Notes under the pieces: model-generated | The model's database searches: none | What the model was told of the DNA's origin: nothing | The model's input: the letters and a program-made list of their open reading frames with translations, nothing else | Translations under genes and position numbers: made by a program | NCBI GenBank assembly: GCA_045656885.1 | Contig: JAZORZ010000071.1 | Span: 2,509-66,508 of the forward strand | DNA: 64,000 bases | Direction: 5' to 3' | Origin: Eubacteriales bacterium | GTDB taxonomy: Bacteria > Bacillota > Clostridia > Oscillospirales > CAG-272 | Shown: positions 3,024-64,000 of the stretch, piece by piece | Layout of the letters: each line of letters opens with the position of its first letter | How positions within the stretch are numbered: the stretch's first letter is position 1

Positions 3024-3797
3024 ATGCGTATTCTTGCCCTTGGTGACGTTGTTGGACACGTTGCCATCGATTATCTCGCCGACAAGCTTTGGGCGTTCCG
3101 CTCGAAGGAAAAAATTGATTTTTGCGTTGCAAACGGAGAGAACGCCACCGAAATTCGCGGTATTTCCGCCGCCGATGCCGAGTCTCTCCTCGATACGGGC
3201 GTTGACCTCATTACGCTTGGCAACCACGCCTTTGGCATGCGTGACATTTATTCCTATCTCGATGCCAACGATGGGCGCATCATTCGCCCCGCAAACTACC
3301 CCACCGACGCGCCCGGCGTTGGTTACACAATTTGCGATGTGAACGGTTGGCGTGTGCTTTGCATCAACGTAAGCGGCAGAGTTTACCTCGATCCGCTTGC
3401 CTCTCCCTTCGATACCGTCGACCGCATTCTCGAACGCGAGAACGGTCGCTATGACCTCGCCTTGCTCGACATTCACGCCGAGGCGACCAGCGAAAAGCTT
3501 GCCATCGGTCGCTATTTCGATGGGCGCATTCAGGTGATGTTCGGCACGCACACCCACGTCCCCACTGCCGACGAGCAGATCCTGCCCCACGGCTCGGGCT
3601 ACATTACCGACCTCGGTATGTGCGGCCCACAGGATGGCATTCTCGGCACCGATGTCGATGCCGTCATTCACCGCTTCCGCACACAAATGCCCACGCGCTT
3701 CTCCGTCGCTTCCGGTGACGTGAAGGCACAAGGCGTCATTTTTGACATTGACGAGAGCGCGAGAAAAGTCCGCAGTGTGAGGAGAATTAGTTTCTAA
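3024..3797 (+). CDS. ymdB: YmdB-type metallophosphoesterase (2',3'-cyclic-nucleotide 2'-phosphodiesterase family)
   Basis: 257 aa. MRILALGDVVG..VANGENA..LGNHAF..GTHTHVPTAD metallophosphoesterase motifs in YmdB order. Confidence 0.8.
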   Translation: MRILALGDVVGHVAIDYLADKLWAFRSKEKIDFCVANGENATEIRGISAADAESLLDTGVDLITLGNHAFGMRDIYSYLDANDGRIIRPANYPTDAPGVGYTICDVNGWRVLCINVSGRVYLDPLASPFDTVDRILERENGRYDLALLDIHAEATSEKLAIGRYFDGRIQVMFGTHTHVPTADEQILPHGSGYITDLGMCGPQDGILGTDVDAVIHRFRTQMPTRFSVASGDVKAQGVIFDIDESARKVRSVRRISF

Positions 3798-3802
3798 AGT
3801 GT

Positions 3803-4030
3803 ATGCGGGGGAAACTTCTTGAGAAGAACAACGCAACGTTCCGTTGCTACGATAATATTTCGCAGGCGAAATATTATGCTCCCCCGCACCCCCTTCAAGA
3901 ACACTCGCACAAATATATCAAAAGAGAATTTCCAGCACACGGACGGACAGTCGGCGCGAGCGCAACGCTCGCTTTTGCTCTCGCGAGCGATTAGGGACCA
4001 CTAACCCTACTCGCTAAGAAAGTTGTTTGG
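3803..4030 (+). repeat. Family-A long intergenic element, copy 1 (GCGGGGGAA..TCCCCCGC hairpin, here with nested inner hairpins, + ACCCCCTTCAAGAAC + linker + two-hairpin module)
   Basis: Starts 6 nt after the ymdB stop. Aligns by eye with 7118-7295, 60649-60828 and the reverse complement of 62278-62460. Confidence 0.8.
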
Positions 4031-4161: not shown

Positions 4162-5124
4162 ATGGTAAGAAAAATTTTACAGGTCATTTTTACGGCAATA
4201 TTTTGCCTGGATATTGCCGTTGGTGTCATCAGCGCCTTTTCCTATCCTCATGATAACGAGGCATACGAACAGCTACAACCCGAAACATTTACGCACGAGC
4301 CCATCGACTCGGTTTACATCAAGGAAGATTTGCAGCAAATTTACGTTTGCTACAATGCGGCGTCCTATGTCAACGTATATACCGTTGACGGCAAATTTCT
4401 CTGGGCGATCTCAACTCCCGAATTAGGCAACAACACGTATTTTGAAATTTTGGATGACAATCTGGTCGTTTACGATTCGGAAACCGCCTACCTCTACAAC
4501 GCGAAAAACGGTGCTTTTGTTGCCAAACGAAACGCCGAAGAGTTGGAGTTGGCATACTACTTTGACTCCGGCGACGAGTCACTGCCCGAGCCCGCCCCGG
4601 GAGATTTTTGTTTTGATGCACACCAGGTATACAAAATAGAAGCGGACGGCAGCGAAACGGTGCTTGTAAAAAGACCGTTCTGGCACAACCTTGTTGACCC
4701 CGTTTTTTGCATCCCGCTCACCTTTCTCGCGGCTTTGGGCATCGGTATTTTGACCTTTTCAAAAGTGTTTCAAGAATACCGTTTTGTAAAAAGAAAATAT
4801 ACAACAGATAGGCAAGGCGTTGTTGTCGGTCACGCACGTGCAAGATTTATTCAAAAGTATTTTCGCGTAGCATCCATCGTCTACCTGGCGTTTGCGGTTT
4901 TGGATGTTCTTTTAGGCATCTTTCTTGACGGCATCCTCGCCGCTGGTATTATTCCCCTCGCGCTACACTTCATTGTATCCAATGCTGTTTTTGCCAATAT
5001 GATGGAGCGCATTCCCTTGACAGAAGACGAAGAAAAAATTATGAATTTTTGGAGTACCGCGCAATTCGCCTCTTTTTTCATTGCCTTTTTCTCGGTTATG
5101 GTTGCCACAGCGTTTGCCACCTAA
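4162..5124 (+). CDS. hypothetical membrane protein (N-terminal TM, extracytoplasmic region, C-terminal multi-TM block)
   Basis: 320-aa ORF with GAAAGGGG RBS and hydrophobic segments at the N-terminus and in the last ~150 aa. No family recognised. Confidence 0.6.
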   Translation: MVRKILQVIFTAIFCLDIAVGVISAFSYPHDNEAYEQLQPETFTHEPIDSVYIKEDLQQIYVCYNAASYVNVYTVDGKFLWAISTPELGNNTYFEILDDNLVVYDSETAYLYNAKNGAFVAKRNAEELELAYYFDSGDESLPEPAPGDFCFDAHQVYKIEADGSETVLVKRPFWHNLVDPVFCIPLTFLAALGIGILTFSKVFQEYRFVKRKYTTDRQGVVVGHARARFIQKYFRVASIVYLAFAVLDVLLGIFLDGILAAGIIPLALHFIVSNAVFANMMERIPLTEDEEKIMNFWSTAQFASFFIAFFSVMVATAFAT

Positions 5125-5151: not shown

Positions 5152-7107
5152 ATGAAATACATCCCCTACGTTAATATAAAACAAGGTTCGGCGTCGATCT
5201 GCCGATTTTCCAACGGCAACACGTTGCCGCTGGTGCAACGTCCGTTTGGTATGGCACCCTTCTGCTTGCAATCGGACGCGGGCGGCGGTCGTTGGTTCTT
5301 TCACCCCGACCACCCTTGCACCGAAGGTATCCGGCTGACGCATCAGCCCAGCCCTTGGCTTGGTGAATACGCCACCTTTTTGATGATTCCGCAAAATGAC
5401 GTTATCTCCAACAACGCACCCGGTGCGTGGTCGGGATACCGTCCGCGCGAGTCGGTCTTTCGCCCCGATTACCTCAAGGTGACCTTTTTGCGCTCCAACT
5501 GCACGTTTGAGCTCACCCCCACCGATCGCGGTGGCGCGATTCGTCTCACATTTGGCGATGAACGCCCCTCGGTTCTCTCCTTCCTGCCCGTAACGGGCAA
5601 CTACGCCTACCGTTATGATGCCGACACACACACCCTCATTGGCACAAACGATGCCACGGGCTCGGGTGTTGCGGTCAATTTCAAATCCTATCTTGCGGTC
5701 AAGTTTTTGGGTGATGTGGTAGACGATGAAAAGGTGATTATTCAAAGCGGCAAGCACACCACCAACGTGCACGTACCGCTCAAAAGCAAAACCGTTGAGG
5801 CGCGCATCGGGTTCTCCTACATCAGCGAGGAAATGGCACTTGCCACCATCGAGCGCGAATGCGGTTCTCGTTCCTTTGAGGAGATTCGCGTGGAAAGCGA
5901 GGACGTTTGGGAAGAAAAGCTCTCCCGCGTTGAGGTAACCACCAAGACCGAGGACGAAATGAAGACCTTTTATTCCTGCTTATGGCGTACCTTCCTCTTT
6001 CCGCAAAAGGCATATGAATTAGACGCCAACGGCAATCCCGTGCATTACGTTCCCGCCACGGGCGAAGTCATGCCGGGATACCGTTACACAAACAACGGCT
6101 TTTGGGATACAAGCCGCACGGTATATCCCCTCTTTACCTTGACTGCTCGCGAAGAATTTGCCGAGATGCTTGAGGGCTTTGTAAACGATTACAAAGAGTG
6201 CGGTTGGCTGCCCCGTTGGCTTGGCTTGGGCGAGATCGGTTGTATGCCGAGCACCTTGATCGACAGCGTGATCGCCTGTGCCGCCGTCAACGGCATTGGC
6301 AAAAAAGAAACGCTCGAGGTAGCACTCGAAGGCATGCTCCACCACGCAAACAACGAGAGCGAAAATCCTATCTACGGTCGCAACGGTGCGCTCTCCTATT
6401 GCAAATACGGCTACGTGCCGAGAAACGAGCAGCGCGAGTCTGTCAACCTCACGCTCGATGCCGCCTACGGTGACTGGTGCATCGCAACAGTTGCAAAAAT
6501 TCTCGGCAGAGATGATTTGGTAGACGAATACATGGCACGCTCCAAAAATTATAAAAATCTGTTTGACCCCTCTACCGGCTTTATGCGCGGCCGCGACACC
6601 GACGGCAATATGGCACCGGACTTTGACCCCTGCACGTGGGGCGGTGAATACACCGAGGGCTCCGCTTGGCAAAACTCGATGTTCGTTCCTCACGACATAG
6701 AGGGTCTTGCCGCTCTCTATGGCGGGCGCGAGCAGTTCCTCGCCAAGCTCGACAAGCTCTTTGCAACCCCTCCCCGCTACCGCGTATTCGGCTATGGCAA
6801 CGAGATTCACGAAATGACCGAAATGGCTGCCGCCGACTTTGGTCAGTGCGCTATCTCCAACCAGCCGTCCTTCCATCTGCCCTTCCTCTATGCCGCTCTC
6901 GGTGAACAGGAAAAAACCGACTACTGGGTAACAAAACTCTGCCGCGAGGCCTTCTCATGGCACAACGACGGCTTCCCCGGTGACGAGGACAACGGCACCA
7001 CCGCCGCTTGGTACGTCCTCGCCTCCCTCGGCTTCTATCCCCTCTGCCCAGGCCATAAAGAGATGATTAAGTGCAAGCAACAGGTAAAGAGTTATAAGAT
7101 TAGATAA
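5152..7107 (+). CDS. GH92-family alpha-mannosidase-like glycoside hydrolase, apparently lacking the usual C-terminal segment
   Basis: AAGGAG RBS. GH92-like blocks: NGNTLPLVQRPFGM, GFWDTSRTVYPLFTL, GWLPRWL, GYVPRNEQRESVNLTLDAAYGDWCIA, EGSAWQNSMFVPHD, SNQPSFHLPFLY, FPGDEDNGTTAAWYVLASLGFYPLCPG. The ORF ends 20 aa after the CPG block. Confidence 0.7.
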   Translation: MKYIPYVNIKQGSASICRFSNGNTLPLVQRPFGMAPFCLQSDAGGGRWFFHPDHPCTEGIRLTHQPSPWLGEYATFLMIPQNDVISNNAPGAWSGYRPRESVFRPDYLKVTFLRSNCTFELTPTDRGGAIRLTFGDERPSVLSFLPVTGNYAYRYDADTHTLIGTNDATGSGVAVNFKSYLAVKFLGDVVDDEKVIIQSGKHTTNVHVPLKSKTVEARIGFSYISEEMALATIERECGSRSFEEIRVESEDVWEEKLSRVEVTTKTEDEMKTFYSCLWRTFLFPQKAYELDANGNPVHYVPATGEVMPGYRYTNNGFWDTSRTVYPLFTLTAREEFAEMLEGFVNDYKECGWLPRWLGLGEIGCMPSTLIDSVIACAAVNGIGKKETLEVALEGMLHHANNESENPIYGRNGALSYCKYGYVPRNEQRESVNLTLDAAYGDWCIATVAKILGRDDLVDEYMARSKNYKNLFDPSTGFMRGRDTDGNMAPDFDPCTWGGEYTEGSAWQNSMFVPHDIEGLAALYGGREQFLAKLDKLFATPPRYRVFGYGNEIHEMTEMAAADFGQCAISNQPSFHLPFLYAALGEQEKTDYWVTKLCREAFSWHNDGFPGDEDNGTTAAWYVLASLGFYPLCPGHKEMIKCKQQVKSYKIR

Positions 7108-7117
7108 GGACGCGGTT

Positions 7118-7295
7118 TTGTGGGGGAACTTCTTTCGAGAAGTTCCCCAACACCCCCTCAAGAACTTGCTGACAAGGGGTTTATCAAAAGAAGTCCGCAG
7201 TGCGCCAACGGACGGTCGACGCAAGCGGCACGCTTGCTTTTGCTGCCGCGAGCCGGTGGGCACCACCAAGACCCCGCCGGCTCAGAAAGTTGATT
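7118..7295 (+). repeat. Family-A long intergenic element, copy 2
   Basis: gtgggggaacttctttcgagaagttcccc hairpin + accccctcaagaac + linker + two-hairpin module. Begins 11 nt after the GH92 stop. Confidence 0.8.
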
Positions 7296-7348
7296 AGCCC
7301 AAACCTTCTGTCCATCCGCGCACTGACAAATCTATTTTACTATTTTTT

Positions 7349-7415
7349 GCGAGTGCTTTTTGGAGGGGGTGCGGGGGAACACTTTTTCGCTGAAAAAGGT
7401 TCCCCCGCAAATCCT
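7349..7415 (-). repeat. Family-A short form (hairpin + ACCCCCTCCAAAAAGCACTCGC when read on the minus strand)
   Basis: gcgagtgctttttggagggggtgcgggggaac..gttcccccgc. Downstream of rny on its strand. Confidence 0.75.
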
Positions 7416-7427
7416 TCATAAATACAC

Positions 7428-7466
7428 AAAAGGGAAAAACCGGAATGGTTTTTCCCTTTTGTTTTG
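7428..7466 (-). terminator. rho-independent terminator of rny (bidirectional shape)
   Basis: AAGGGAAAAACC-GGAA-TGGTTTTTCCCTT stem-loop with T-runs on both strands. Confidence 0.7.
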
Positions 7467-7543: not shown

Positions 7544-9100
7544 TTATTTAGCATAATCGACGGTACGGGTCTCGCGAATAAGATTCAGCTTGATCTGACC
7601 GGGATATTTAACTTCATCTTCAATCTTCTTTGCCATTTCGCGGGCGATGAGCTTCATGCCTTCATCGTTAACGATTTCGGGCTTAACCATAACGCGGATC
7701 TCACGACCTGCCTGAATGGCGAATGCTTTGTCAACACCTTGGAAGCTTGCTGCGATTTCCTCGAGCTTTTGCAGGCGTTTAATGTAGTTTTCCATATCCT
7801 CGCGGCGTGCACCGGGACGAGCGGCAGAAACTGCGTCTGCGGCTTGAACGAGGACGGCTACGATGGTTTGGGGCTCCACGTCATTGTGGTGTGCCTCTAC
7901 TGCGTGAAGAACCTCGGGGCTCTCCTTGTACTTTTTGAGTGCGTTAACACCCAGTTCTACGTGCGAGCCTTCCATATCCTGCGGGAATGCCTTACCGATA
8001 TCGTGGAGAAGTCCTGCGCGGCGTGCGGTTGTGCCATCTACACCGAGCTCGTCTGCCATGATGCCTGCCAGCCATGCCACCTCGATGGAGTGCTGCAGTA
8101 CGTTTTGCCCATAGCTTGTGCGGTAGCGCAAGCGACCGAGCAGTTTGATCAGGTCGGGGTGGATTCCGTGTACGTGAACCTCAAAGGTTGCACGCTCACC
8201 TGCCTGCTTGATAACGTTTTCTACTTCCTTGCGGGATTTTTCAACAGTTTCTTCAATGCGTGCGGGGTGGATTCTACCGTCGGAGATCAGCTTTTCCAAT
8301 GTCAGTCTTGCAATTTCACGTCTGACGGGGTCAAAGCCCGAAATTGCAATGGTCTCAGGGGTATCGTCGATAATGAGCTCGACGCCCGTGAGGGTTTCCA
8401 GCTTTTGAATGTTACGTCCTTCACGACCGATGATGCGGCCCTTCATTTCCTCGTTGGGCAATGCCACAGCGGAAACGGTCGCCTCGGTTACGTGGTCAGC
8501 AGCACATCTTTGAATTGCCAGGGACAACAGATTGCGTGCCTTGCTTTCGGCTTCCTCTTTGAATTGTGCTTCGAGCTCGTCAAGCTTTTGCGCCATATCG
8601 TGCTTTGCTTCGGATTCAACGCGATGCATCAGCTCGGATTTGGCCTCTTCGGCGGTATAGCCGGAGATCTCTTCAAGACGAGACAGGTGTTGTGTCAGAA
8701 CCATTTGGATCTGCTCTTTCACAATGTCGTTTGCCTTCAGCTTTTCGTCCAGTTGCTCGTTTTTGCGTTCCAACGCTTCGGTCTTTTTGTCAAGGTTTTC
8801 TTCCTTTTGCACCAAACGGCGCTCTTGACGGGAAATTTCAGTGCGACGCTCTTTGAGATCACGCTCGGTCTCATTACGCAGGCGGAGCACTTCTTCTTTG
8901 CCCTCAAGGAGAAGTTCCTTCTTCTTGGCCTCGGCGTTCTTTTTGCCTTCTTCTACGATGCGCTTGGCTTCCTGCTCGGCAGAACCGATCTTCTTTTCGC
9001 CAATATTCTTACGAATAGCGAAACCGATTCCGCAACCGGCAGCACCTGCCACAACAATAGCGGCCACAACGGAGACAACCAGAACCCATAATTGTACCAT
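7544..9100 (-). CDS. rny: ribonuclease Y
   Basis: 518 aa: N-terminal TM, long coiled-coil ([11 protein letters not shown]..), KH domain ([12 protein letters not shown]) and HD domain (LLHDIGKA). Confidence 0.95.
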
Positions 9101-10382: not shown

Positions 10383-10458
10383 GAGCGCTTTTTTGAAGGG
10401 GGTGCGGGGGAAACGTTTTTTCTCATGAAAAAAGTTCCCCCCGCATTCTCTCTCAAAT
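10383..10458 (-). repeat. Family-A short form
   Basis: gagcgcttttttgaagggggtgcgggggaaacg..gttccccccgc. Confidence 0.75.
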
Positions 10459-10464
10459 AAACAC

Positions 10465-10497
10465 ACAAAAAAGGAGCCGACCGTATGGTCGACTCCT
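10465..10497 (-). terminator. rho-independent terminator of rpsU
   Basis: GGAGCCGACC-GTAT-GGTCGACTCC hairpin followed on the minus strand by TTTTTT. Confidence 0.7.
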
Positions 10498-10518
10498 ATT
10501 TTGTAAGCGTTGTATAAA

Positions 10519-10823: not shown

Positions 10824-12023
10824 TTATTTTTTGCCCTCCAAAATCACGGGTGGACGGCGCAACTGCTCATCGGCGGCAATGGCGCGGGGCAAGCATTTGG
10901 AATAGAGAGCGGCAGATGCCGACTCCAATTCAAACTGTCGTGCCGCGGCAGGCGTTTCGGGCAGGTCGGTCTGGCGTGTAACAATAGGCAGGTCGCTTGT
11001 TTTGCGAGCAGATGCAAGGAATGCTCTGCCTACCTCGTTTGCCGCAAACAAACGGACATAGGAAACAGGTGCACGCAGATCCTCCTTCTTGACGCGCAAG
11101 AGTGCCGCAAGAACACCACGGCGGATACGCGCATCGGGATATTTTTTGGTGGCACAAAGCTCATAAAACTCGGTGAGCGTGGTGGCTTTGAGCGCGGCGT
11201 TGTGCAGCCGCCCCGCAAGACCGCTGCCAAGGCCTACGTAGCCCTCAAGCTCCTTTTGCGGTGTGAGTGCCAGCATGCCAAGCACCAACGCCTCAGCATT
11301 TTTGAGGGTTGCGGGTGCTGTTTTGGCTCTGCCCTCGCGGCGGGACACCTCTCCGCAAACACCCGGAAGATAGGACATAATGCTTTCTATTTCGTTTTCC
11401 TCCCATGCGCGACGTAGGGCGGTGGCAGAGGGGAACTCTCCCATAACCAACTCCTGCTCGGCATATCCGCTGCCCTCACGCTTAATTGTAACGGGCTTTA
11501 TGCTCGATTGCAGCGCGCGAATGGCACGCAGATAGGAAATACCGAGAATATCGTTTGGTGCACATATAGCACCCTTATCGTTTGCCATTTGGGAAAGCAG
11601 CTTGAAATAAGCACTTGCCGTGCCACCCTCGCGCTCGGTCGCTGCGATGTATGCCGCTTGGAATTCTTGGGAGTCGGCAACCTCCGCATAACGCGAAAGA
11701 AGCTCCAAGTCCCCTGACTCCGAGCCAAACCAAACCTCATCTACACCAAGACGGGAAAGGATCTCCACACCGGCGCGTCCAAAAAATTCTGCGCTCGATG
11801 CCGCATACGGAAAGGGAAGCTCAACAACGGCATCTGCCCCGCTCGATACCAAAATTTCGGCTCTCGCGTGCGGCGATAGCACCGCCGCTTCTCCGCGTTG
11901 CACAAAGTTGCCACTCATAACGCAAATGATGGCGTCGGCTCCGCTCTCGCGTGCACATTTCATTAAATATTCATGCCCCCCGTGATACGGGTTACATTCG
12001 CAAATAATACCTATGGTGTGCAT
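10824..12023 (-). CDS. tmcAL: tRNA(Met) cytidine acetate ligase (YlbM/UPF0348 nucleotidyltransferase family)
   Basis: ORF 10824..12161 trimmed to ATG 12023. MHTIGIICECNPYHGGHEYL..ICVMSGNFVQRGE..NDILGISYLRAI. Confidence 0.8.
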   Translation of the reverse strand: MHTIGIICECNPYHGGHEYLMKCARESGADAIICVMSGNFVQRGEAAVLSPHARAEILVSSGADAVVELPFPYAASSAEFFGRAGVEILSRLGVDEVWFGSESGDLELLSRYAEVADSQEFQAAYIAATEREGGTASAYFKLLSQMANDKGAICAPNDILGISYLRAIRALQSSIKPVTIKREGSGYAEQELVMGEFPSATALRRAWEENEIESIMSYLPGVCGEVSRREGRAKTAPATLKNAEALVLGMLALTPQKELEGYVGLGSGLAGRLHNAALKATTLTEFYELCATKKYPDARIRRGVLAALLRVKKEDLRAPVSYVRLFAANEVGRAFLASARKTSDLPIVTRQTDLPETPAAARQFELESASAALYSKCLPRAIAADEQLRRPPVILEGKK

Positions 12024-12153
12024 AAAAACCTTCTTTCTTTTTTGCGCGGGCACTATTGAACGTCCGCGCAGCTTGGTTTTCTTCTCTTTTGTAATTATAC
12101 CACAAAAATCGGCATTTGTCAAACAGATTTGCGGATTTTGGCACGCAAAAAAG

Positions 12154-17914: not shown

Positions 17915-18049
17915 GGGATGCCGAGGACGTCATCCCCTACAAGGTGTTTTTCATTTTTATTGTAGGGGCGATTCACGAATCGCCCGCCTCTATAAACGAT
18001 AATCGCTTATTTTGCGGGAGCCCCAAGGGACTCCCCTACCGGTTGATTT
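17915..18049. repeat. three Family-B (REP-like) units in +,-,+ orientation (BIME-like cluster)
   Basis: gggatgccgaggacgtcatcccctac / gtaggggcgattcacgaatcgccc / gggagccccaagggactcccctac. Confidence 0.7.
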
Positions 18050-21104: not shown

Positions 21105-21177
21105 CGCAAGTGCTTTTTGGAGGGTGCGGGGGAACGCTTTTTCTCTTGAAAAAGGTTCCCCCGCATTCTCTCAAAAG
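21105..21177 (-). repeat. Family-A short form
   Basis: cgcaagtgctttttggagggtgcgggggaacgc..ggttcccccgc. Confidence 0.75.
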
Positions 21178-21191
21178 CAGTCTTACAAACG

Positions 21192-21226
21192 AAAAAGCGG
21201 ATTTGGTTTACAAATCCGCTTTTTTC
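21192..21226 (-). terminator. rho-independent terminator of rpmF (bidirectional shape)
   Basis: GCGGATTTG-GTTTA-CAAATCCGC with T-runs on both strands. Confidence 0.75.
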
Positions 21227-57346: not shown

Positions 57347-59944
57347 GTGGCTAACGAAAAGGACAAAAATTTAGAAAAAGAACAGGAGCTCGCCCTGTTT
57401 GAAAATCAGAAAATCGTCGACGTGGGTATGGAAAAGGAAGTTAAAAAATCCTTTATCGAGTATTCTATGTCGGTTATTATGGCGCGTGCGCTTCCCGACG
57501 TGCGCGACGGAATGAAGCCCGGTGCTCGCCGTATTCTTTACGCGATGTACGAGGACGGCTTGGTGCATTCCAAGCCCTTCCGCAAGTCGGCTACCACCGT
57601 AGGTAACGTGCTCGGTCGCTATCACCCTCACGGTGACGCTGCTGTTTACGGCACTATGGTTCGCATGGCGCAGGATTTCTCTATGCGTTATCCTCTGGTA
57701 GAGGGACACGGAAACTTTGGCTCTGTTGACGGTGACGGCGCGGCTGCTTACCGTTATACCGAGGCACGTCTTGATAAGATTGCCGACGAAATGATGCGTG
57801 ATCTTGATAAGAACGTCGTTCCCATGATGCCTAACTTTGATAACCGCTTGCAAGAACCCACGGTTCTGCCTTCCCGTTTTCCCAATCTCTTGGTTAACGG
57901 CTCTATGGGTATTGCGGTTGGTATGGCGACCAATATTCCCCCTCACAACCTTGGTGAGGTCATTGACGCCACCATCTACCGCATGGATAACCCCGAGTGC
58001 TCGGTTGACGATTTGATGGAGTACATCAAGGGTCCCGATTTTCCCACTTATGCCACCATTTACGGCGTTAACGGCATTCGCTTGGCATACGAAACCGGCA
58101 AGGGTCACATCATGGTTCGTGCACGCGCAACCATTGAGGAAGACCACCGCCGCATTGTATTTACCGAAATTCCCTACGGCGTTAACAAGAGTTTGCTCTG
58201 CGAGTCTATTGCAAACTGCGTTAAGGAAAAGAGAATTGAGGGCATTACTGAGCTGCGCGACGAATCGGGCAGAGACGGTATGCGCATTGTTGTGGAATAC
58301 CGCCGCGACGTCAACTCGCAAATTCTTCTCAATCAACTGTATAAATATACCCAGCTGCAGGAGACTTTTGCTATCAATATGCTGGCTCTTGTTAACAACG
58401 AGCCCAAAGTTCTCAACCTGCCGCAAATTCTTGACCATTACATTGCTCACCAAGAGCAAGTCATCACGCGCCGCACCGAGTTCGAGCTTGAAAAGGCAAA
58501 GGCAAGAGCGCACATTTATGAGGGCTACAAGATCGCGCTTGATAACATCGACGAGATCGTGCAGATTATGAAGACCTCTCCCTCTATTCCTGCATCCAAG
58601 CAGACCTTGATGGAGCGCTTTGGTCTGACTGATATTCAATCGCAAGCCATTGTTGAAATGACCCTTGGTAAGCTGACCGGCATGGAAAGAAGCAAGATCG
58701 AAGACGAACTCGCACGCCTGCACGCTCTCATTGAAGAGCTTGAAGGCATTCTTGCCGACATTGGCAAGATCAAGCAGATCATTAAGGATGAGATGGGCGA
58801 GATCCGCCGCAAGTATGCAGACGACCGCCGCACCGACATTATGGCGGCCGAGCACGAGATCATTCTTGAGGACCTCATCGAGCGTCACAACTGTGTTATC
58901 ACACTCACCAACGCGGGTTACATTAAACGTCAACCTGCGGCAGTTTATTCTGCACAACACCGTGGCGGACGCGGCGTAATTGGTATGTCCACTAAGGAAG
59001 AGGACTTTATCGAAAAGGTCATTGCCGTTAACAGCCACTCTTATCTGTTGATGTTCACCAACACGGGTAAGGTTCAAATGCGTAAGGCATATATGATCCC
59101 CGAGGCGGGACGCACCGCACGCGGACAAAATATCGTTAACATTCTCGAGCTTGAGGCAGGGGAAAAGATCACCTCTTGCATCAGCGTAGACGAGTTTACC
59201 GACACCCATTACCTCACCATGGTAACCAGAAACGGTGTTATTAAGAGAACAAAACTTTCCGAATACGAATACCAACGCAAGGGCGGTAAGATCGCGCTCA
59301 CCCTTGACGAGGGCGACGAGCTGCTTTACGTAGTGCTGACTGACGGCACCTGCGAGCTTCTCATTGCAACCGAGCAAGGTCAAGCAATCCGCTTTGCCGA
59401 AGAGGGTGCACGCGCACTCGGACGTACCGCACGCGGTGTTCGCGGCATCAGTTTGCGCGAGGGCGACCACGTTAAGGGCGTTTGCACCGTTGAAGAAGGC
59501 AAGGATCTGCTCTGCATCACCGCAAACGGCTTTGGTAAGCGCAGCCCGTTCGATGACTTCCGCTTGATGAAGCATCGCGGCGGCTACGGTGTCACCTGCT
59601 ACAATCTGACCGAAAAGAGCGGTGACCTGACAGGTATTGCCGCTGTTGACGATAGCATGGATATTATGATGATCACCGATTCGGGTACCATTATTCGTAC
59701 TCCCGTTGCAGGTATTCCTTCCCGTTCCCGTAGTGCAGGCGGCGTAATCGTAATGCGCCTTGGCGAGGGACAACAGCTTGTCAACTTTACCGTTGTTGCT
59801 CGCGAAGAAGAGAACGAAGAGGAAGAAGTCGAATTCGATGAAGATGGCAACGAGATCGTAGCAGAAGTCACTTCTGAAGCAACAGAAGTTGTTGAAACGG
59901 CTGAACAGGTAGAGGAAACCACACAATCCCAAAGTGAAGAATAA
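57347..59944 (+). CDS. gyrA: DNA gyrase subunit A
   Basis: [47 protein letters not shown] (active-site Tyr), C-terminal beta-pinwheel and acidic tail. GTG start. Confidence 0.97.
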
Positions 59945-60642
59945 TGGAAGAAACAAAAAAACTCACCAAGGAAATTATCCTTGTGTTTTTCAAAAAGCAT
60001 TACAAAAAAATTATAGCTGGGGCACTCGCGGTGGTGGTTTTGGCCGTGAGCTGCGTGCTCCTGTTCCAATGCAACGCCGCGCCGCGCATTGAGGATATTT
60101 ACGATAGAATGGTCTATCTTCTCGAATCCTCGCAAGAGGTCAATGCGCTCATTTACGGTTGCGGACTGCCTGTTTGGGAGGACGACTCCGAATACGTAGC
60201 GTTTGAACACATTTATTACGGTCTCGACTCTGCCCAACACTACGAAATCGTAATGCCCAATGCAAAATATCACACCGCGCAGGATATGAAGGATGCCATC
60301 GAAAAAATCTACTCCAAGGCGTATCTCGACGAGGTCATCTACACAGCAATTTTCGACGGCTTTGCCATCTCCGATAGTGTTGGTGGCTCGGTTGTCGGCG
60401 TTGCGCGATACTACGAGGAAGGTATGTACCTCTGGCAGTCTAAGGAGTTCCGTGTTACCCCCTACGAGGGTATGCGCATTTATGATTTTTCTACCATGAA
60501 GGTGCAGTCACTCGGTAAAAAAGACCGCTGCGTCATCACCGTCGACTCCTGGCTCGAGGATACTCCCGAAAACGTCGAAAACGTCGAAATTCTCATCGCC
60601 CTGCAGGACGGTCAGTGGTATTTAGATAATTTTATAGTGTAA
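59944..60642 (+). CDS. hypothetical membrane-anchored protein
   Basis: The start overlaps the gyrA stop by 1 nt. One N-terminal TM. No family recognised. Confidence 0.6.
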   Translation: MEETKKLTKEIILVFFKKHYKKIIAGALAVVVLAVSCVLLFQCNAAPRIEDIYDRMVYLLESSQEVNALIYGCGLPVWEDDSEYVAFEHIYYGLDSAQHYEIVMPNAKYHTAQDMKDAIEKIYSKAYLDEVIYTAIFDGFAISDSVGGSVVGVARYYEEGMYLWQSKEFRVTPYEGMRIYDFSTMKVQSLGKKDRCVITVDSWLEDTPENVENVEILIALQDGQWYLDNFIV

Positions 60643-60648
60643 TGGAAA

Positions 60649-60828
60649 AGTGGGGAAAACTTCTTGCAAGAAGTTTTCCCCACACCCCTTTCAAGAACTC
60701 TCTAACAAGGGACTATAGAAATAAGTTGTTAGTTTATAAACAGACAGTCGGCGCGTGCCTCTTGGCACGCTTTTGCTCTCGCGAGCGCGTGGGCACCACC
60801 AAGACCCCGCGCGCTAAGAAATTTGTTA
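60649..60828 (+). repeat. Family-A long intergenic element, copy 3
   Basis: gtggggaaaacttcttgcaagaagttttccccac + acccctttcaagaac + linker + two-hairpin module. Confidence 0.8.
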
Positions 60829-60872: not shown

Positions 60873-60905
60873 GTTCCCCCGCACCCCTTCAAAAAAGCAC
60901 GCACA
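60873..60905 (+). repeat. Family-A fragment (right hairpin arm + ACCCCTTCAAAAAAGCACGC)
   Basis: gttcccccgcaccccttcaaaaaagcacgcac. No matching left arm seen. Confidence 0.6.
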
Positions 60906-61093: not shown

Positions 61094-62263
61094 ATGAAAT
61101 TGACTATTGGTGAAAACATCCGCAATTTTCGCAAAAAGAACGATTTAACGCAAGAGGAGCTTGCCGACCGTTTGGGTGTGACTTATCAATCCATCAGCCG
61201 TTGGGAAAACGGCGCGACCTACCCCGACCTTGAACTAATCCCCGCGATTGCCGAAACGCTCTCGGTTACAATAGACGAGCTTCTCGGTATGCCGCAGATT
61301 GAAAAAGAAAAAAGAGCACTTGCAACCTTTGATGAGCTCCGCCGCGAGTGTATGAAAAAAGAATACGATGCCGACAAAATCGTAACACTTCTGCGCGATA
61401 TTCGCCGAAATTATCTAGATAGCGACTACGCGTGGCGTCCGTGGAGCGAGGGCAACGACCGTACATTCCGCGATCCCAAAATTTTGCCCGAGGTGCGCTT
61501 TTTGGCGGAGGAATATCTCAAGCGACATCCTATGTATCCCCATACCATTCAAACGATGGCAGAGGTTGAAGACGAAGAACATCTTAATGATTTCCTAAAA
61601 AAACACACTACCTCTTTTGATTGTTCGGAACGTGCATTGCTTTTTAGACGGTATATGTATCGCGGTGATGCGAAACGCTTTGAAACAGAAAGAAACTATC
61701 AGCTTTACCACGCATTTAACAAATTGCTTTGCCCGAGTTATCTGTTAAAATGGGGAGAAAGCAAAAACAACAAAGACTATGCGGATGATTTTATGGAAAC
61801 CATACTTTCTCTGATACGGCGAGATGCAACGGATGACGGTCCGGATATGTGGATAGCCGACCGCATAGAACTTGGATTAAAATCTGCGGTACGATTGATC
61901 TCTGTTAACAAGCAGAATGAAGCACTATTACAGATTGAAACGGCAGTAAAACTATTGGAAGAGACCATGAAAATTACAGATGAGGTGTTGTTGCCAACAT
62001 CCTGCCGTTTTCTTGAGAAAATGGAGTGGAAGGCAAAAGAGGATTGGTTGAGTCCCAATAACAATCCCGATGTTGCTGAAGAACGAATGATCTATATTTA
62101 TACGTCTATAAACGGTATGAGCACCTGCTATTGCATATACCCGAGCGTAGAGTTGTATACTTTGCAAGGCAAAGAATTCGACCCCATCCGCAACCACCCC
62201 GAATTTCAAAGTCTTTGCGAGCGCGTAAAAGCGCTGATTGTAACAAGACCAAAAGAAAAGTAG
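61094..62263 (+). CDS. XRE-family HTH regulator with a long helical (TPR-like) C-terminal domain
   Basis: IGENIRNFRKKNDLTQEELADRLGVTYQSISRWENG HTH, then ~320 aa of helical repeats. Promoter TTGCTT-17-TATAAT upstream. Confidence 0.75.
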   Translation: MKLTIGENIRNFRKKNDLTQEELADRLGVTYQSISRWENGATYPDLELIPAIAETLSVTIDELLGMPQIEKEKRALATFDELRRECMKKEYDADKIVTLLRDIRRNYLDSDYAWRPWSEGNDRTFRDPKILPEVRFLAEEYLKRHPMYPHTIQTMAEVEDEEHLNDFLKKHTTSFDCSERALLFRRYMYRGDAKRFETERNYQLYHAFNKLLCPSYLLKWGESKNNKDYADDFMETILSLIRRDATDDGPDMWIADRIELGLKSAVRLISVNKQNEALLQIETAVKLLEETMKITDEVLLPTSCRFLEKMEWKAKEDWLSPNNNPDVAEERMIYIYTSINGMSTCYCIYPSVELYTLQGKEFDPIRNHPEFQSLCERVKALIVTRPKEK

Positions 62264-62277
62264 GCGCTCACGCCAAC

Positions 62278-62460
62278 GCAAAACAACTTTCTTAGCGAGT
62301 AGGGGTGGTGGTCCCTAATCGCTCGCGGCAGCAAAAGCAAACGCCCACCGGCGTTGCGCCTCCCGTCTGTTAGTAAACTGGCAAATTTATTTTGATAACC
62401 CCTTGTCAGCAAGTTCTTGAGGGGGTGTGGGGGAACTTCTCGAAAGAAGTTCCCCCACAT
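62278..62460 (-). repeat. Family-A long intergenic element, copy 4 (inverted relative to copies 1-3)
   Basis: Its reverse complement aligns with copies 1-3. The hairpin gtgggggaacttctcgaaagaagttcccccac is at 62427-62458. Confidence 0.8.
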
Positions 62461-62470
62461 TTTCGCGTCT

Positions 62471-62839
62471 TCAAAACAAATTCTCCACCGAAAACTGTTC
62501 TAATCTTCTCACATCGTCAATGCTGTCTTGCAAGAGGGTGAGGGCGGCGTGGTAGCCGTAAACGTCACCGACCTCGGCACAGGAGAGGAGAGTTTGGCAA
62601 TGCTCGGAGAGCTTGTCAACGGTGAGAAAACCGACGGTGAGCCCCACGAGGGGCGCGTTCTTTTCCCACTTTTTGCAAAGGGCAGCGGCTTTTTCCACGC
62701 ACGTGGAATCGTTTGGTGAAGGGAGAGAATCTGCCATCTCTGTAAGACTGTCCGCCAAGCGGTTGATATAAATAAAATTTGCGGTTGCCGCCAAAACCAT
62801 CGCAAAAACCAAAATAACGGTCGCAATCAAAGATCTCAT
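62471..62839 (-). CDS. DUF4363-like protein
   Basis: ORF trimmed to ATG 62839. One N-terminal TM. Sits downstream of and overlaps a DUF421 gene, the usual pairing. Confidence 0.65.
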   Translation of the reverse strand: MRSLIATVILVFAMVLAATANFIYINRLADSLTEMADSLPSPNDSTCVEKAAALCKKWEKNAPLVGLTVGFLTVDKLSEHCQTLLSCAEVGDVYGYHAALTLLQDSIDDVRRLEQFSVENLF

Positions 62840-63519
62840 TTTTTCTCTCCTTTCATTTTGGGTATCCAATAAATCTCGCCTTGGCTGTTCGCAGTCACGC
62901 AAAACTGATCTGCCGGAGCCACCCCGCGTCGCAAAAGCTGTTTTTCCACCCACGCGCGATCTTTTCCAATCAGCGAGAGCCCTTTGTCATTGTAACAGTT
63001 TCCGTTATACACAACGTGCATCAAGCTTTCCTCGCTCGTGGTGATGTTCATTTGTTCCTGCGTCGGCGGAGAATATCGCGCGCGCGGAAGAATGGTCAAT
63101 CTGCCGTCCTTTTCGAGAATAGCATACCAAACGCAAGCAAGACTGCAAAATCCCTGTTGACGAATCTCGCTCATCAGCTCTTCAATCGAAAGGCGCGTAG
63201 CAACCAGCGCGGTTTGGTCAAGAATGCCGTCTTTGATGAGGATCGTGGGCGCCGCCGATAGAAAATTCTTCAGTTTTGGCACTCTTATTAATATATAGGA
63301 AGAAAAAACTTCGAGCGAGAGCAAAACGATCATTGGGATGATCGCGTGCAAAACGGGAATGTTCGGGTCGGTAATGGGGAGGGAGGCAATTTCCGAAAGC
63401 AGGAGCGTGGCAACAAGATCGGTCACTTCCAATTCTCCAATTTGTCGTTTTCCCATCAACCGCATAATTAAAATGAGAAAAATATAGACCAAAAGCGTGC
63501 GAAAAATCAGCGTTATCAT
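62836..63519 (-). CDS. DUF421 (YetF-like) membrane protein
   Basis: MITLIFRTLLVYIFLILIMRLMGKRQIGELEVTDLVATLLLSEIA.. is the typical DUF421 N-terminus. Confidence 0.8.
   Translation of the reverse strand: MITLIFRTLLVYIFLILIMRLMGKRQIGELEVTDLVATLLLSEIASLPITDPNIPVLHAIIPMIVLLSLEVFSSYILIRVPKLKNFLSAAPTILIKDGILDQTALVATRLSIEELMSEIRQQGFCSLACVWYAILEKDGRLTILPRARYSPPTQEQMNITTSEESLMHVVYNGNCYNDKGLSLIGKDRAWVEKQLLRRGVAPADQFCVTANSQGEIYWIPKMKGEKK

Positions 63520-63841: not shown

Positions 63842-64000
<159 letters not shown>

Follow-up and report, generated by a model that had tools for sequence, protein, structure and literature searches.

The flagged element lies at positions 3803-4025 on the plus strand of the window, by which we mean the whole 64,000-nt stretch analysed here, and begins 5 nt past the stop codon of ymdB (ORF 3024-3797; cmsearch score of the repeat 142.8 bits, E 2.9e-36). 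The repeat is also present at the orthologous ymdB site in L019, L043 and L046. Read in the sense direction, the window copy starts with the 5′ arm of a hairpin, P1 (GCGGGGGAAACTTCTTG, 3805-3821), which is interrupted by a 56-nt insertion with small hairpins of its own (3822-3877) that is missing in the orthologous copies of L043, L046 and L019. A remnant of the P1 3′ arm (GCTCCCCCGC, 3878-3887) follows, and then S3, a C-rich strand (CCCCCTTCAAGAAC, 3889-3902) that mirrors this arm. Further downstream, terminator scanning and covariation both identify P3 (3956-3972), hairpin 1 of the preliminary description, in which GCGAGCG-CAA-CGCTCGC precedes TTTTGCT; with a folding energy of -10.7 kcal/mol it resembles an intrinsic terminator. 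The conserved junction TTTTGCTCTCGCG (3973-3985), whose columns are invariant among copies that were themselves selected by a pattern containing this motif, leads into P4, the former hairpin 2 (AGCGATTAGGG/CCCTACTCGCT, 3986-4015), in which a pyrimidine-pyrimidine mismatch is conserved and the loop is ACCAC. The copy ends in a conserved tail, AAGAAAGTTG (4016-4025). GTTG in this tail may pair with CGGC upstream of P3 as a closing stem; only G.U to A-U changes are seen there, so they lend it little support.

Three further full copies are present in the window. The second (7117-7292, plus strand, 170 bits) lies 12 nt past the stop of a GH92 gene (5152-7107) and comprises P1 at 7120-7151, S3 at 7153-7165, P3 at 7221-7237, the junction at 7238-7250, P4 at 7251-7282 and the tail at 7283-7292. 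The third (60648-60825, plus strand, 179.5 bits) begins 7 nt past the stop of ORF 59944-60642, with P1 at 60650-60683, S3 at 60685-60698, P3 at 60753-60770, the junction at 60771-60783, P4 at 60784-60815 and the tail at 60816-60825. The fourth is on the minus strand (62284-62461, 150.2 bits), 12 nt past the stop of a DUF4363 gene (62471-62953, minus strand), and its parts run from P1 (62458 to 62427) through S3 (62425 to 62413), P3 (62357 to 62337), the junction (62336 to 62324) and P4 (62323 to 62294) to the tail (62293 to 62284); its ortholog is present in L010. The preliminary description had reported four long copies at these places, and a covariance model built from 28 copies relocated all of them at 143-180 bits and E ≤ 3e-36.

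Shorter forms accompany the full copies. Behind rny (7544-9100, minus strand) and its terminator lies a truncated minus-strand copy at 7304-7408, consisting of P1 (7408 to 7371), S3 (7369 to 7355) and a linker to about 7304. It is without a 3′ module and almost touches the end of the second full copy, so that two copies of opposite orientation stand only 12 nt apart (7292/7304); in the same place L046 has a full minus-strand copy and two extra genes. Copies made up of the 5′ module alone are found on the minus strand at 10387-10444 (P1 10444 to 10404, S3 10402 to 10387), behind rpsU and a terminator at a site conserved in L043 and L046, and at 21112-21164 (P1 21164 to 21126, S3 21124 to 21112), behind a yceD-like gene and a terminator. 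Finally, a plus-strand fragment of a second 5′ module at 60873-60900 retains a P1 3′ arm and S3 (GTTCCCCCGCACCCCTTCAAAAAAGCAC) and matches the intact module of L012 at the orthologous site. The truncated copy, both isolated modules and the fragment had escaped the preliminary description, and the separate GGGGGAAC hairpins that it listed are the 5′ module alone. The count for the 64 kb is 9 copies or fragments, and the genes upstream of the window copies (ymdB, GH92, rny, rpsU, yceD and DUF4363) are unrelated housekeeping genes.

The flagged sequence belongs to a real family of folded repeats of ~180 bases that was previously unnamed. Its anatomy, covariation, position and orientation, species spread and module shuffling are direct observations of the present analysis. 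The core GCTTTTGCTSYCGCGAGC occurs exactly four times in the window, and six matches are found when up to three mismatches are allowed, compared with 0.26 expected by chance. More than 45 full and ~25 short copies were found in ~300 kb of related genomes, and the holders found by one pattern scan of a genome collection and one of metagenomes are ~10 MAG species of uncultured ruminant-gut Clostridia, in several of which repeats are retained at the same sites. Copies were collected with a search pattern containing the conserved junction, so the invariance of such motifs is partly imposed. A search of the whole window against Rfam 15 at the gathering threshold matched only SSU rRNA (63842-64000) and nothing on the repeat. 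In E-value mode the best scores for two copies were 22-25 bits, against thresholds of 43-80, and all were generic hairpin matches; the self-cleaving ribozymes and riboswitches known to Rfam were among the models searched, and none came near threshold. That the repeat was not recognised as a named RNA family agrees with these searches, and a literature search for a named repeat family in Oscillospiraceae found nothing. Neither a conserved ORF, a transposase nor terminal inverted repeats were found in the repeat family, and an origin from a phage or plasmid was rejected on the strength of searches of viral contigs and of phage and plasmid collections, which gave no match.

Full copies share the order leader, P1, S3, variable linker hairpin, P3, P4 and tail (AAGAAAGUUG). 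The short leader, GGA(YGCGG)TTTT, stands immediately 3′ of the stop codon; P1 is a G/C-clamped hairpin of 14-17 bp; P3 is a GC hairpin followed by UUUUGCU; and P4 carries a conserved ACCACC loop. Short forms consist of P1 and S3 only, with an ordinary terminator next in some copies. This agrees with the layout proposed originally (a 5′ hairpin, ACCCCCTYAAGAAC, a linker, hairpin 1, TTTTGCT..CGCGAGC, hairpin 2 and AGAAAKTTG), with two amendments: the 5′ hairpin of the flagged copy is broken by its insertion, and that of the second copy has a C.A mismatch near its base (CCCCAAC, compared with CCCCCAC elsewhere). The stem variants listed for hairpins 1 and 2 were correct.

Compensatory changes, initially noticed between four copies, hold on a set of 41 drawn from the window and ~10 other genomes. 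Predicted partners pair in 96.6% of cells, compared with 89.8 ± 0.4% in shuffled sets and 44-52% in sets with slid partners. Two-sided changes are seen in 19 of the 34 pairs, where shuffling leaves 8.9 and sliding 2-7. Covariation is located in P1, P3 and P4, whose pairs are independently ranked top by mutual information. The fold z-score is -6.0, and in well-supported helices G.U pairs outnumber A.C pairs by 34 to 13. Within P4 the pyrimidine-pyrimidine mismatch is conserved and swaps from C.U to U.C. A diverged copy in L036 has a wholly different P4 stem (CCATTTTGG/CCAAAATGG) and keeps the ACCACC loop and the tail GAAAGTT; between its recognisable P1-S3 and P4-tail lies another interior of 120 nt. 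The proposal that structure and not sequence is under selection is backed by covariation across ~10 species. The preliminary description would have yielded to an absence of covariation or to an insertion sequence or MITE whose terminal repeats explained the pairing; covariation is present, terminal inverted repeats are not, and phage, plasmid and viral sequences gave no match. An alternative pairing of the P3 3′ arm with a downstream GCGAG is seen by eye to be lost where the stem is GCACGC or GCGCGC, and it was rejected. Linkers are highly diverse between copies. P4 types are found with both P1 types, and so modules assort independently, the two arms of each helix staying matched; shuffling moves modules from copy to copy, and at orthologous sites they are gained, lost or swapped.

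We also considered a small protein-coding gene starting at the base of P1, an idea with some appeal in that an SD-like GGA and GTG, ATG or TTG are often present and three-way length changes in the module preserve the frame. The candidate was set aside on several grounds: a start codon is missing in 10 of 57 modules and ~10 stop after 1-6 codons within the P1 loop, peptide lengths range from 1 to >80 aa, copies that stop in the loop still covary, and the positions where a start codon would lie change in step with the bases they pair with.

S3 mirrors the P1 3′ arm and co-varies with P1, in the layout of an intrastrand triplex motif. A copy's own S3 scores 8.53 against the mirror of its 3′ arm, compared with 6.54 for the S3 of other copies, and 0 of 5000 permutations attain the own-copy value; against the direct or reversed 5′ arm S3 scores only 1.2-1.6. 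S1, S2 and S3 co-vary both in run lengths, T-runs of 4, 5 and 6 corresponding to A-runs of 4, 5 and 6, and in single bases; G3 matches C3, and an AAGG insertion has its mirror counterpart. We rejected an antiparallel pairing between S3 and the 5′ arm, as the blocks are in the wrong order and a top base that covaries consistently emerges only under the mirror, or parallel, reading. The arrangement comprises the purine run, complementary pyrimidine run and mirroring third block of three-block triplex motifs, and the central C-run of S3 copies the 5′ arm rather than mirroring the 3′ arm. ITxF motifs are defined by loops of 1-6 nt and an uninterrupted homopurine tract, in place of which a helix extension of 14-20 nt lies here between the lower-stem blocks.

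The position of the repeat behind genes and its sense orientation had gone unnoticed in the preliminary description. Thirty-eight of 48 5′ modules begin 5-23 nt past the stop of a long ORF on the same strand, where a random intergenic position and strand would give ~12% (binomial p ~2e-26). An in-frame stop codon directly abuts the leader in ~65% of copies. All seven window copies are co-oriented with the upstream gene, three on the plus and four on the minus strand, with both strands represented within a few hundred bases; in L003 and L011 convergent genes carry two convergent copies between them. Orientation in the window is tied in each case to the upstream gene and not to a replication strand, on which the GC skew of the window is too weak to inform. 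In ~20% of copies no same-strand stop codon lies ahead: among them, those at L043 15305-15481 and L046 18004-18116 adjoin the start of an opposite-strand gene, and that at L036 8317-8551 is antisense relative to both neighbours. Of the two options originally left standing, a transcribed RNA or a structure-recognised mobile element, the evidence tilts towards RNA because of sense orientation, adjacency to stop codons and the excess of G.U over A.C pairs; the mobile element remains a candidate.

We put at about even the chance that the repeat is a modular, mosaic element of 3′ UTRs, similar to BIME, BOX and SPRITE elements, whose constraint acts on the RNA and whose role is to form or protect the 3′ ends of mRNAs. 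In all four full window copies a terminator scan finds P3 with its TTTTGCT to be terminator-like, with 6-7 pairs counted, 4-6 of them G-C, and folding energies of -8.9 to -13.3 kcal/mol; in the fourth copy the scan set the stem a few bases inward and the tail reads TGCTTTTGCT. The U-tract has just 4 U before GCU. No further terminator-like site lies within 160 nt downstream of 26 of 40 full copies, and in L035 a copy that has neither P3 nor P4 directly adjoins the ribosome-binding site of the gene that follows. Among short forms a terminator follows in 4 of 19 according to a simple finder that missed at least one evident case. Three 5′ modules in the window are located after a canonical terminator, not before it, which counts against this reading. 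On this account the repeat would act in cis on its transcript, with P3 stopping or pausing transcription and the very stable P1, possibly as P1-S3, blocking 3′-to-5′ exonucleases one ribosome footprint past the stop codon; P1 and P3 together would determine where the upstream mRNA ends and how stable it is, a role also suggested for REP/BIME and SPRITE elements. Copies become homogenised and shuffled, and now and then are gained or lost, through recombination with one another or through some route of transposition. Transcription of the repeat, its terminator and stabiliser activities and triplex formation are what we infer from sequence. An efficient P3 would terminate first, so P4 and the tail would go untranscribed, yet they are the most conserved parts of the repeat. 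Presence/absence differences, subtype replacement, nested insertions and inter-copy deletions suggest the behaviour of a selfish repeat, and also count against an mRNA-end role, as do the ~20% of copies with no same-strand stop ahead of them.

It is possible, if somewhat unlikely, that the repeat is a non-autonomous mobile element whose ends, leader-P1-S3 on the left and P4-tail on the right, are read, in the form of folded single strands of DNA, by a transposase whose gene lies elsewhere, such as one of the HUH/Y1 type that serves IS200/IS605 PATEs and REP/RAYT systems. Hairpins would then co-vary because the enzyme reads shape, and sense orientation at gene ends would reflect preference for a T[AG]A-containing target together with purifying selection. 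Such an element would account for conserved ends around a variable interior, as seen in the diverse linkers and the 120-nt interior of L036, and for nested insertions, inter-copy deletions and contig breaks or chimeras at copies. The close relatives L043 and L046 differ from the window in presence at the HIGH_NTase site, one L046 copy starts straight after a TAG that is not in use as a stop codon, and the leader retains T[AG]A even where no ORF ends there. In the one filled/empty comparison, of L043 and L046 with window positions 12020-12100, the flanking sequences have diverged too far for the junctions to be located. Like PATEs, the repeat is short, of fixed polarity and without terminal inverted repeats, and has a subterminal hairpin at each end, the right one (P4) 10 nt from the terminus. 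As DNA, each half of the S3 mirror could plausibly form a triplex on chemical grounds. IS200/IS605 left-end and right-end hairpins, however, resemble each other, whereas P1 (GGGGGAAACTTCTTG...) and P4 (AGCGGCTGGG...) share neither sequence nor loop, which led us to reject an IS200/IS605-type PATE in particular. No transposase gene lies between or beside the ends in ~300 kb with >45 full copies, among which no autonomous tnpA/tnpB relatives with the same ends were found; those of greatest length (252-254 nt) hold small repeats of other kinds and no ORFs, no RAYT (Y1 transposase) gene flanked by repeats was found among the called genes of L033-L046, and the repeat has no Rfam match to IS605-related RNA motifs. 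The lack of matches in viral contigs and in phage and plasmid collections weighs against mobility as well, as do persistence at orthologous sites across species, the lack of a definable target-site duplication, and orientation that tracks the upstream gene rather than one DNA strand, as with the plus copy at 7117-7292 and the minus copy at 7408-7304 within 300 bp. A DNA transposase is moreover blind to reading frames, yet ~65% of copies have an in-frame stop against the leader. If the repeat is mobile, no known bacterial transposon explains its gene-end targeting. A MITE was rejected, as no complementarity exists between the left terminus (T[AG]A-GGAYGCGGTTTT-P1) and the right one (..GCTAAGAAAGTTG). 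An integron attC site, with R''/R' core sites (RYYYAAC ... GTTRRRY) in one long imperfect hairpin 3′ of a cassette ORF, shares with the repeat its location 3′ of ORFs in the same orientation; it was rejected in view of an end reading GTTG-WTT, no inverse core at the 5′ side, several separate hairpins, and flanking housekeeping genes that form no array.

Three other readings each start from one part of the repeat. The three-way covariation of hairpin and mirror strand within one module suggests a triple helix, and there is a small chance that P1-S3 is a genuine intrastrand triplex, in RNA or in unwound DNA, acting one ribosome footprint past the stop codon as a translation-coupled 3′-end device. 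Intrastrand triplex repeats exist in bacteria (PMC4666352). Purine-motif triplex is reported not to form in RNA (PMC4666352); it is the type to be expected of the purine half of the S3 mirror, and this counts against the RNA version. We think it distinctly improbable that the 3′ module (closing stem, P3, junction, P4 and tail) is an independent RNA domain, such as a three-way junction that binds a protein or ligand, a processing site or a small ribozyme, that is carried on many mRNAs and places a set of genes under common post-transcriptional control. It does bear the signature of a functional RNA, with co-varying stems and near-invariant junctions and loops (GCUUUUGCU, CGCGAGC, ACCACC and AAGAAAGUUG), and the conserved P4 mismatch with its C.U to U.C swap, the G.U to A-U exchanges of the closing stem and the fold z-score of -6.0 point the same way. 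These motifs are, however, partly imposed by the collecting pattern, no Rfam family comes near threshold, the upstream genes have no common function, many sites have only a 5′ module or a copy truncated before P3, and P3 with its U-run would end many transcripts before P4. Highly doubtful, finally, is the possibility that the repeat acts as DNA and has no role in the transcript, P1-S3 being a potential intrastrand triplex like E. coli BoxC/TMECO that folds when strands unwind, stalls polymerases and promotes rearrangement as a source of genome instability. The preference of the mirror for a copy's own S3, the covariation of S1, S2 and S3, and the clustering of rearrangements at copies are in line with this, and from the chemistry described in PMC4666352 the antisense blocks would be expected to form G.G-C and T.A-T triads, which are the most stable at neutral pH. 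More frequent rearrangement is reported for TMECO loci than for control loci. TMECO shows no strand or distance bias relative to genes (PMC4666352), unlike the strongly biased family described here. A DNA triplex would also leave P3, P4 and the conserved junctions unexplained, the run of C in the middle of S3 violates the triplex code, and the linker from P1 to S3 is just 1-4 nt.

Comparison with PIT motifs (BoxC/TMECO; Hoyne & Maher 2000; Holder et al. 2015, PMC4666352) places the lower P1 stem and S3 in the class III order on the sense strand (purine, pyrimidine, Hoogsteen pyrimidine) and in class I on the antisense strand. Both kinds of repeat have a purine run, its pyrimidine complement and a mirroring third block, are intergenic, and are tied to rearranged loci. 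They differ in that the first 'loop' of the present module is a helix extension of 6-7 bp; because this extension is also mirrored in S3, an alternate-strand triplex would be required. The module is, furthermore, specific in strand and position relative to genes and part of a larger element, and its triplex is a prediction. Were P1-S3 to fold in this way, it would be the bacterial equivalent of RNA stability elements built on a triple helix, or else a terminator aided by a triplex, and the repeat that carries it would be of a new kind, inserting itself at stop codons in sense orientation.

For the preferred reading as an mRNA 3′-end element, E. coli BIME/REP sequences are instructive. They too are high-copy, extragenic mosaics of a few interchangeable modules, found mainly at gene 3′ ends and between the genes of operons, and form stable hairpins in the transcript; stabilisation of upstream mRNA and a part in termination have been proposed for them (general knowledge; PMC3733652). 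A REP unit is a simple palindrome of 20-40 nt with a conserved GTAG or CGTC head, a definition that the present repeat does not fit: P1 is preceded by GTG, GCG, TCG or ACG, which pair with the 3′ side. The present repeat is also unlike BIME/REP in its fixed gene-relative orientation beginning at the stop codon and its multi-helix 3′ module with invariant junctions, and shares no sequence similarity with them. A separate GTAG-headed REP family occurs in the same genomes, some members lying beside or inside copies of the repeat. In pneumococci, BOX elements are modular (A-B-C), with modules absent or repeated, and fold extensively when transcribed (Croucher et al. 2011, PMC3049150), and SPRITE elements have a terminator-like hairpin with a U-rich tract, are enriched near CDS 3′ ends and have been proposed as co-opted terminators (PMC3049150). 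Their restriction to a narrow clade recurs in our family, with which they have no homology. Terminal inverted repeats and target-site duplications are features of BOX and RUP, whereas here the former are absent and the latter not definable; and the strand bias of those pneumococcal repeats is ~60%, compared with exact adjacency to same-strand stops in ~80% of cases for the repeat.

REP, BIME, BOX and SPRITE elements have been known for decades, and their function is still argued. The family described here is an unusually clean case, combining strict polarity, a near-fixed distance from the stop codon and multi-helix covariation across about ten species. If it acts on the transcript, a sizeable share of the genes of this clade would owe the 3′ ends of their mRNAs to one common, interchangeable cassette. 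Copies also break metagenome assemblies: contigs end or fold back at them, and for this reason the repeat should be modelled when MAGs of this clade are annotated.

The repeats make up a mosaic extragenic family, new and confined to one clade, in which selection on structure is real and coupling to gene ends is strict. Adjacency to stop codons, together with polarity, is the main new fact about the family. Of 48 5′ modules (the 5′ hairpin P1 with the C-rich strand S3 that follows it), 38 start 5-23 nt past the stop codon of a long same-strand ORF, a placement expected for 12% of random intergenic positions and strands (binomial p ~2e-26, with copies not fully independent). The stop codon lies directly against the conserved leader GGA(YGCGG)TTTT in about two thirds of the stop-adjacent copies, and T[AG]A is retained in the leader even where no ORF ends there. 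All seven oriented copies in the window, which represent both strands, are co-directional with their upstream gene (ymdB, a GH92 gene, an unannotated ORF, DUF4363, rny, rpsU and a yceD-like gene), and two convergent copies are present between convergent genes. Exceptions are three window 5′ modules that come after a canonical terminator, a copy in L043 and L046 (L numbers denote loci from related genomes or metagenomes) that adjoins the start of an opposite-strand gene, and the L036 copy, which is antisense relative to both neighbours.

The preliminary description placed four long copies in the window and outlined their layout, and both were borne out on re-inspection. A covariance model trained on 28 family copies finds copies 1, 2 and 3 on the forward strand (3803-4025, 7117-7292 and 60648-60825) and copy 4 on the reverse strand (62284-62461), all with E <= 3e-36. 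The family core, GCTTTTGCTSYCGCGAGC, has four exact occurrences in the window, and allowing up to three mismatches yields six matches vs 0.26 by chance. Two corrections apply: a 56-nt insertion (3822-3877) splits the 5′ hairpin of copy 1, and a C.A mismatch lies close to the base of that hairpin in copy 2. The insertion has hairpins of its own (CAACG..CGTTG and ATAATATTTCGC-AG-GCGAAATATTAT), and the orthologues of copy 1 in L043, L046 and L019 lack it.

RNAalifold and pair counting returned P1, a hairpin with two helical segments; P3 and P4, which equal hairpins 1 and 2 of the preliminary description, P4 having 9 pairs flanking a conserved pyrimidine-pyrimidine mismatch; and a possible 4 bp closing stem, CGRC/GUUG, weakly supported because it shows G.U<->A-U exchanges only. 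The earlier proposal that structure is under selection agrees with covariation in 41 copies, which lies well above both controls: 96.6% of cells are paired vs 89.8 ± 0.4% when shuffled and 44-52% when slid, and both-sided changes affect 19 of 34 pairs vs 8.9 shuffled and 2-7 slid. P3, P4 and P1 also supply the top-ranked pairs in a blind mutual-information scan. Stems fall into discrete types; the roughly seven P4 types, common to several species, combine freely with both P1 types, and modules are therefore shuffled while helix arms stay matched. In the more distant L036 genome (ymdB 74% identical), a diverged copy bears a P4 stem of entirely different sequence, CCATTTTGG/CCAAAATGG, and retains the P4 loop ACCACC and the tail GAAAGTT. 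The excess of G.U over A.C pairs in P1, P3 and P4 (34 vs 13) modestly favours folding of the strand co-directional with the upstream gene.

S3 mirrors the 3′ arm of P1, which is equivalent to complementing the 5′ arm in parallel. Against the mirrored 3′ arm of its own copy it scores 8.53, vs 6.54 against those of other copies (0 of 5000 permutations reach 8.53), 4.88 against the 3′ arm read directly, and 1.19 (direct) or 1.60 (reversed) against the 5′ arm. The two arms and S3 co-vary as three strands in different sequence backgrounds: T-run length (4/5/6) tracks A-run length (4/5/6), G3 tracks C3, TTCTT/AAGAA/AAGAA swaps with TTTTT/AAAAA/AAAAA, the base following the run is G<->C or C<->G according to type, and an AAGG inserted in L015 has a mirrored counterpart, TTCC. 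The central C-run is the sole break in the mirror rule. A coding cause, three frame-keeping indels, was rejected, since the covariation persists in copies with a putative ORF that terminates within the loop. On this strand the blocks run purine, pyrimidine, mirror pyrimidine, the order of a class III intrastrand triplex; the opposite strand has the class I order. The mirrored upper stem of such a candidate triplex would require an alternate-strand form. The PIT, BoxC and TMECO intrastrand triplex motifs occur as repeats in bacterial genomes and can fold in vitro, and purine-motif triplexes are noted in the same paper not to form in RNA (PMC4666352).

The separate GGGGGAAC hairpins of the window (7371-7408, 10404-10444 and 21126-21164, other strand) are the 5′ module alone, read from the opposite strand. 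Outside the window a conserved terminator of ordinary type, GGGATAGC..GCTATCCC-TTT, sometimes comes after this short form, and for one orthologous gene (C-terminus ..VELE*) two species have the short form and a third has the full one. In each of the four window copies P3 plus TTTTGCT registers as terminator-like, and in 26 of 40 full copies no second terminator-like site lies within 160 nt; in L035, a copy cut off before P3 adjoins the ribosome-binding site of the next gene. Canonical terminators at 7426-7462, 10470-10500 and 21190-21225 separate the rny, rpsU and yceD-like genes from reverse-strand 5′ modules, and G/C-clamped TTTTT-type P1 modules in this genome lie behind terminators, not in front. 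One terminator hairpin, (A)AGGGATAGC-loop-GCTATCCCTTT, was not found in the window; it recurs with unchanged sequence after short or full copies at unrelated loci of different species (L004 at ~5530 on the reverse strand, L025, L013, L022, L003, L006 and L024) and so seems to be a repeated module too. In the distant relative L033 (ymdB 78% identical), the post-ymdB site holds only a G5..C5 hairpin (GGGGGAGCTTGCAAAAAGCCCCCC, 6785-6815), with neither mirror strand nor 3′ module, which could be an ancestral or decayed state of P1.

We give roughly even odds to a cis-acting 3′ UTR element that forms or protects mRNA 3′ ends, a reading drawn from sequence. P3 would serve as terminator or pause site, P1, possibly with S3, would block exonuclease, and copies would spread and be homogenised through recombination with one another. 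Its chief weaknesses are that P4, which lies beyond the putative terminator P3, is strongly conserved and that the dynamics look selfish. In close relatives, copies at orthologous sites vary in module subtype, in truncation and in presence between genomes; other small repeats are inserted in the P4 loop of L046 (GTAG-REP-like) and in P1 of window copy 1. Mobility, with the element recognised in the form of folded single-stranded DNA, is possible, if doubtful; a pattern scan of viral contigs gave 0 loci, and blastn against plasmid and phage collections gave no match.

It is unlikely that the 3′ module is an autonomous RNA domain. A triplex acting purely at the DNA level seems more improbable still. 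BIME/REP, BOX/SPRITE (PMC3049150) and PIT elements are the closest in kind to the family and are not homologous to it. It lacks defining features of REP, MITE, IS200/IS605-PATE and attC elements. Rfam 15 holds no matching family, in keeping with the earlier failure to recognise a named RNA.

Among 185,579 species genomes, a pattern scan located 32 loci, which all fall within ~10 MAGs labelled Eubacteriales or Oscillospiraceae bacterium, and metagenomes added five. The nearest ymdB relatives, at 92-94% amino-acid identity, derive from metagenome samples of the ruminant gut and carry just the label 'Clostridia bacterium'. Across 246.6 kb (window plus loci) the covariance model detects 41 copies that are full or nearly so, along with ~25 short ones, and additional loci contain more. 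Metagenome contigs stop or fold back at family copies; L042 is a palindromic chimera with the same genes mirrored around ~13125, and L044 and L045 end ~48 nt past the ymdB stop codon, within the element, all assembly artefacts.

Within the window, the truncated copy 7408->7304 arose via loss of DNA that L046 retains between two convergent copies. The copy 3 site holds a full element where L012 carries a different subtype, a leftover fragment of which lies beside copy 3 (60873-60900). A 320-aa ORF without a Pfam match (4162-5124) separates copy 1 from the GH92 gene. L046 has this ORF, and L043 lacks it and has a reverse-strand short copy in its place; this difference is a repeat-bounded indel. 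An HTH_3-domain gene (61094-62263) lies between convergent copies 3 and 4; L012 lacks it, and there a REP-like element lies in the gap, only ~120 nt long, that separates the orthologues of these copies.

Three GTAG-headed palindromic repeats cluster at 17920-18042 (GTAGGGGCGATTCACGAATCGCCC on the forward strand and two on the reverse, reverse complements GTAGGGGATGACGTCCTC and GTAGGGGAGTCCCTTGGGGCTCCC). The cluster is classically REP/BIME-like and gives this genome a second repeat family. Such repeats often lie 10-20 nt past the element tail (..GTTGTTTTGCRTT|GTAGGGG..), as in L043 (15492-15555), L012 (~110-230), L025, L017 and L027, and in L046 (8147-8400) one interrupts the P4 loop at TAGGG; these positions suggest that the GTAG family has its target site in the structured repeat or adjacent to it. 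A 16S rRNA gene starts ~1.4 kb from copy 4 (63842-64000, 118.7 bits, cut by the window end).
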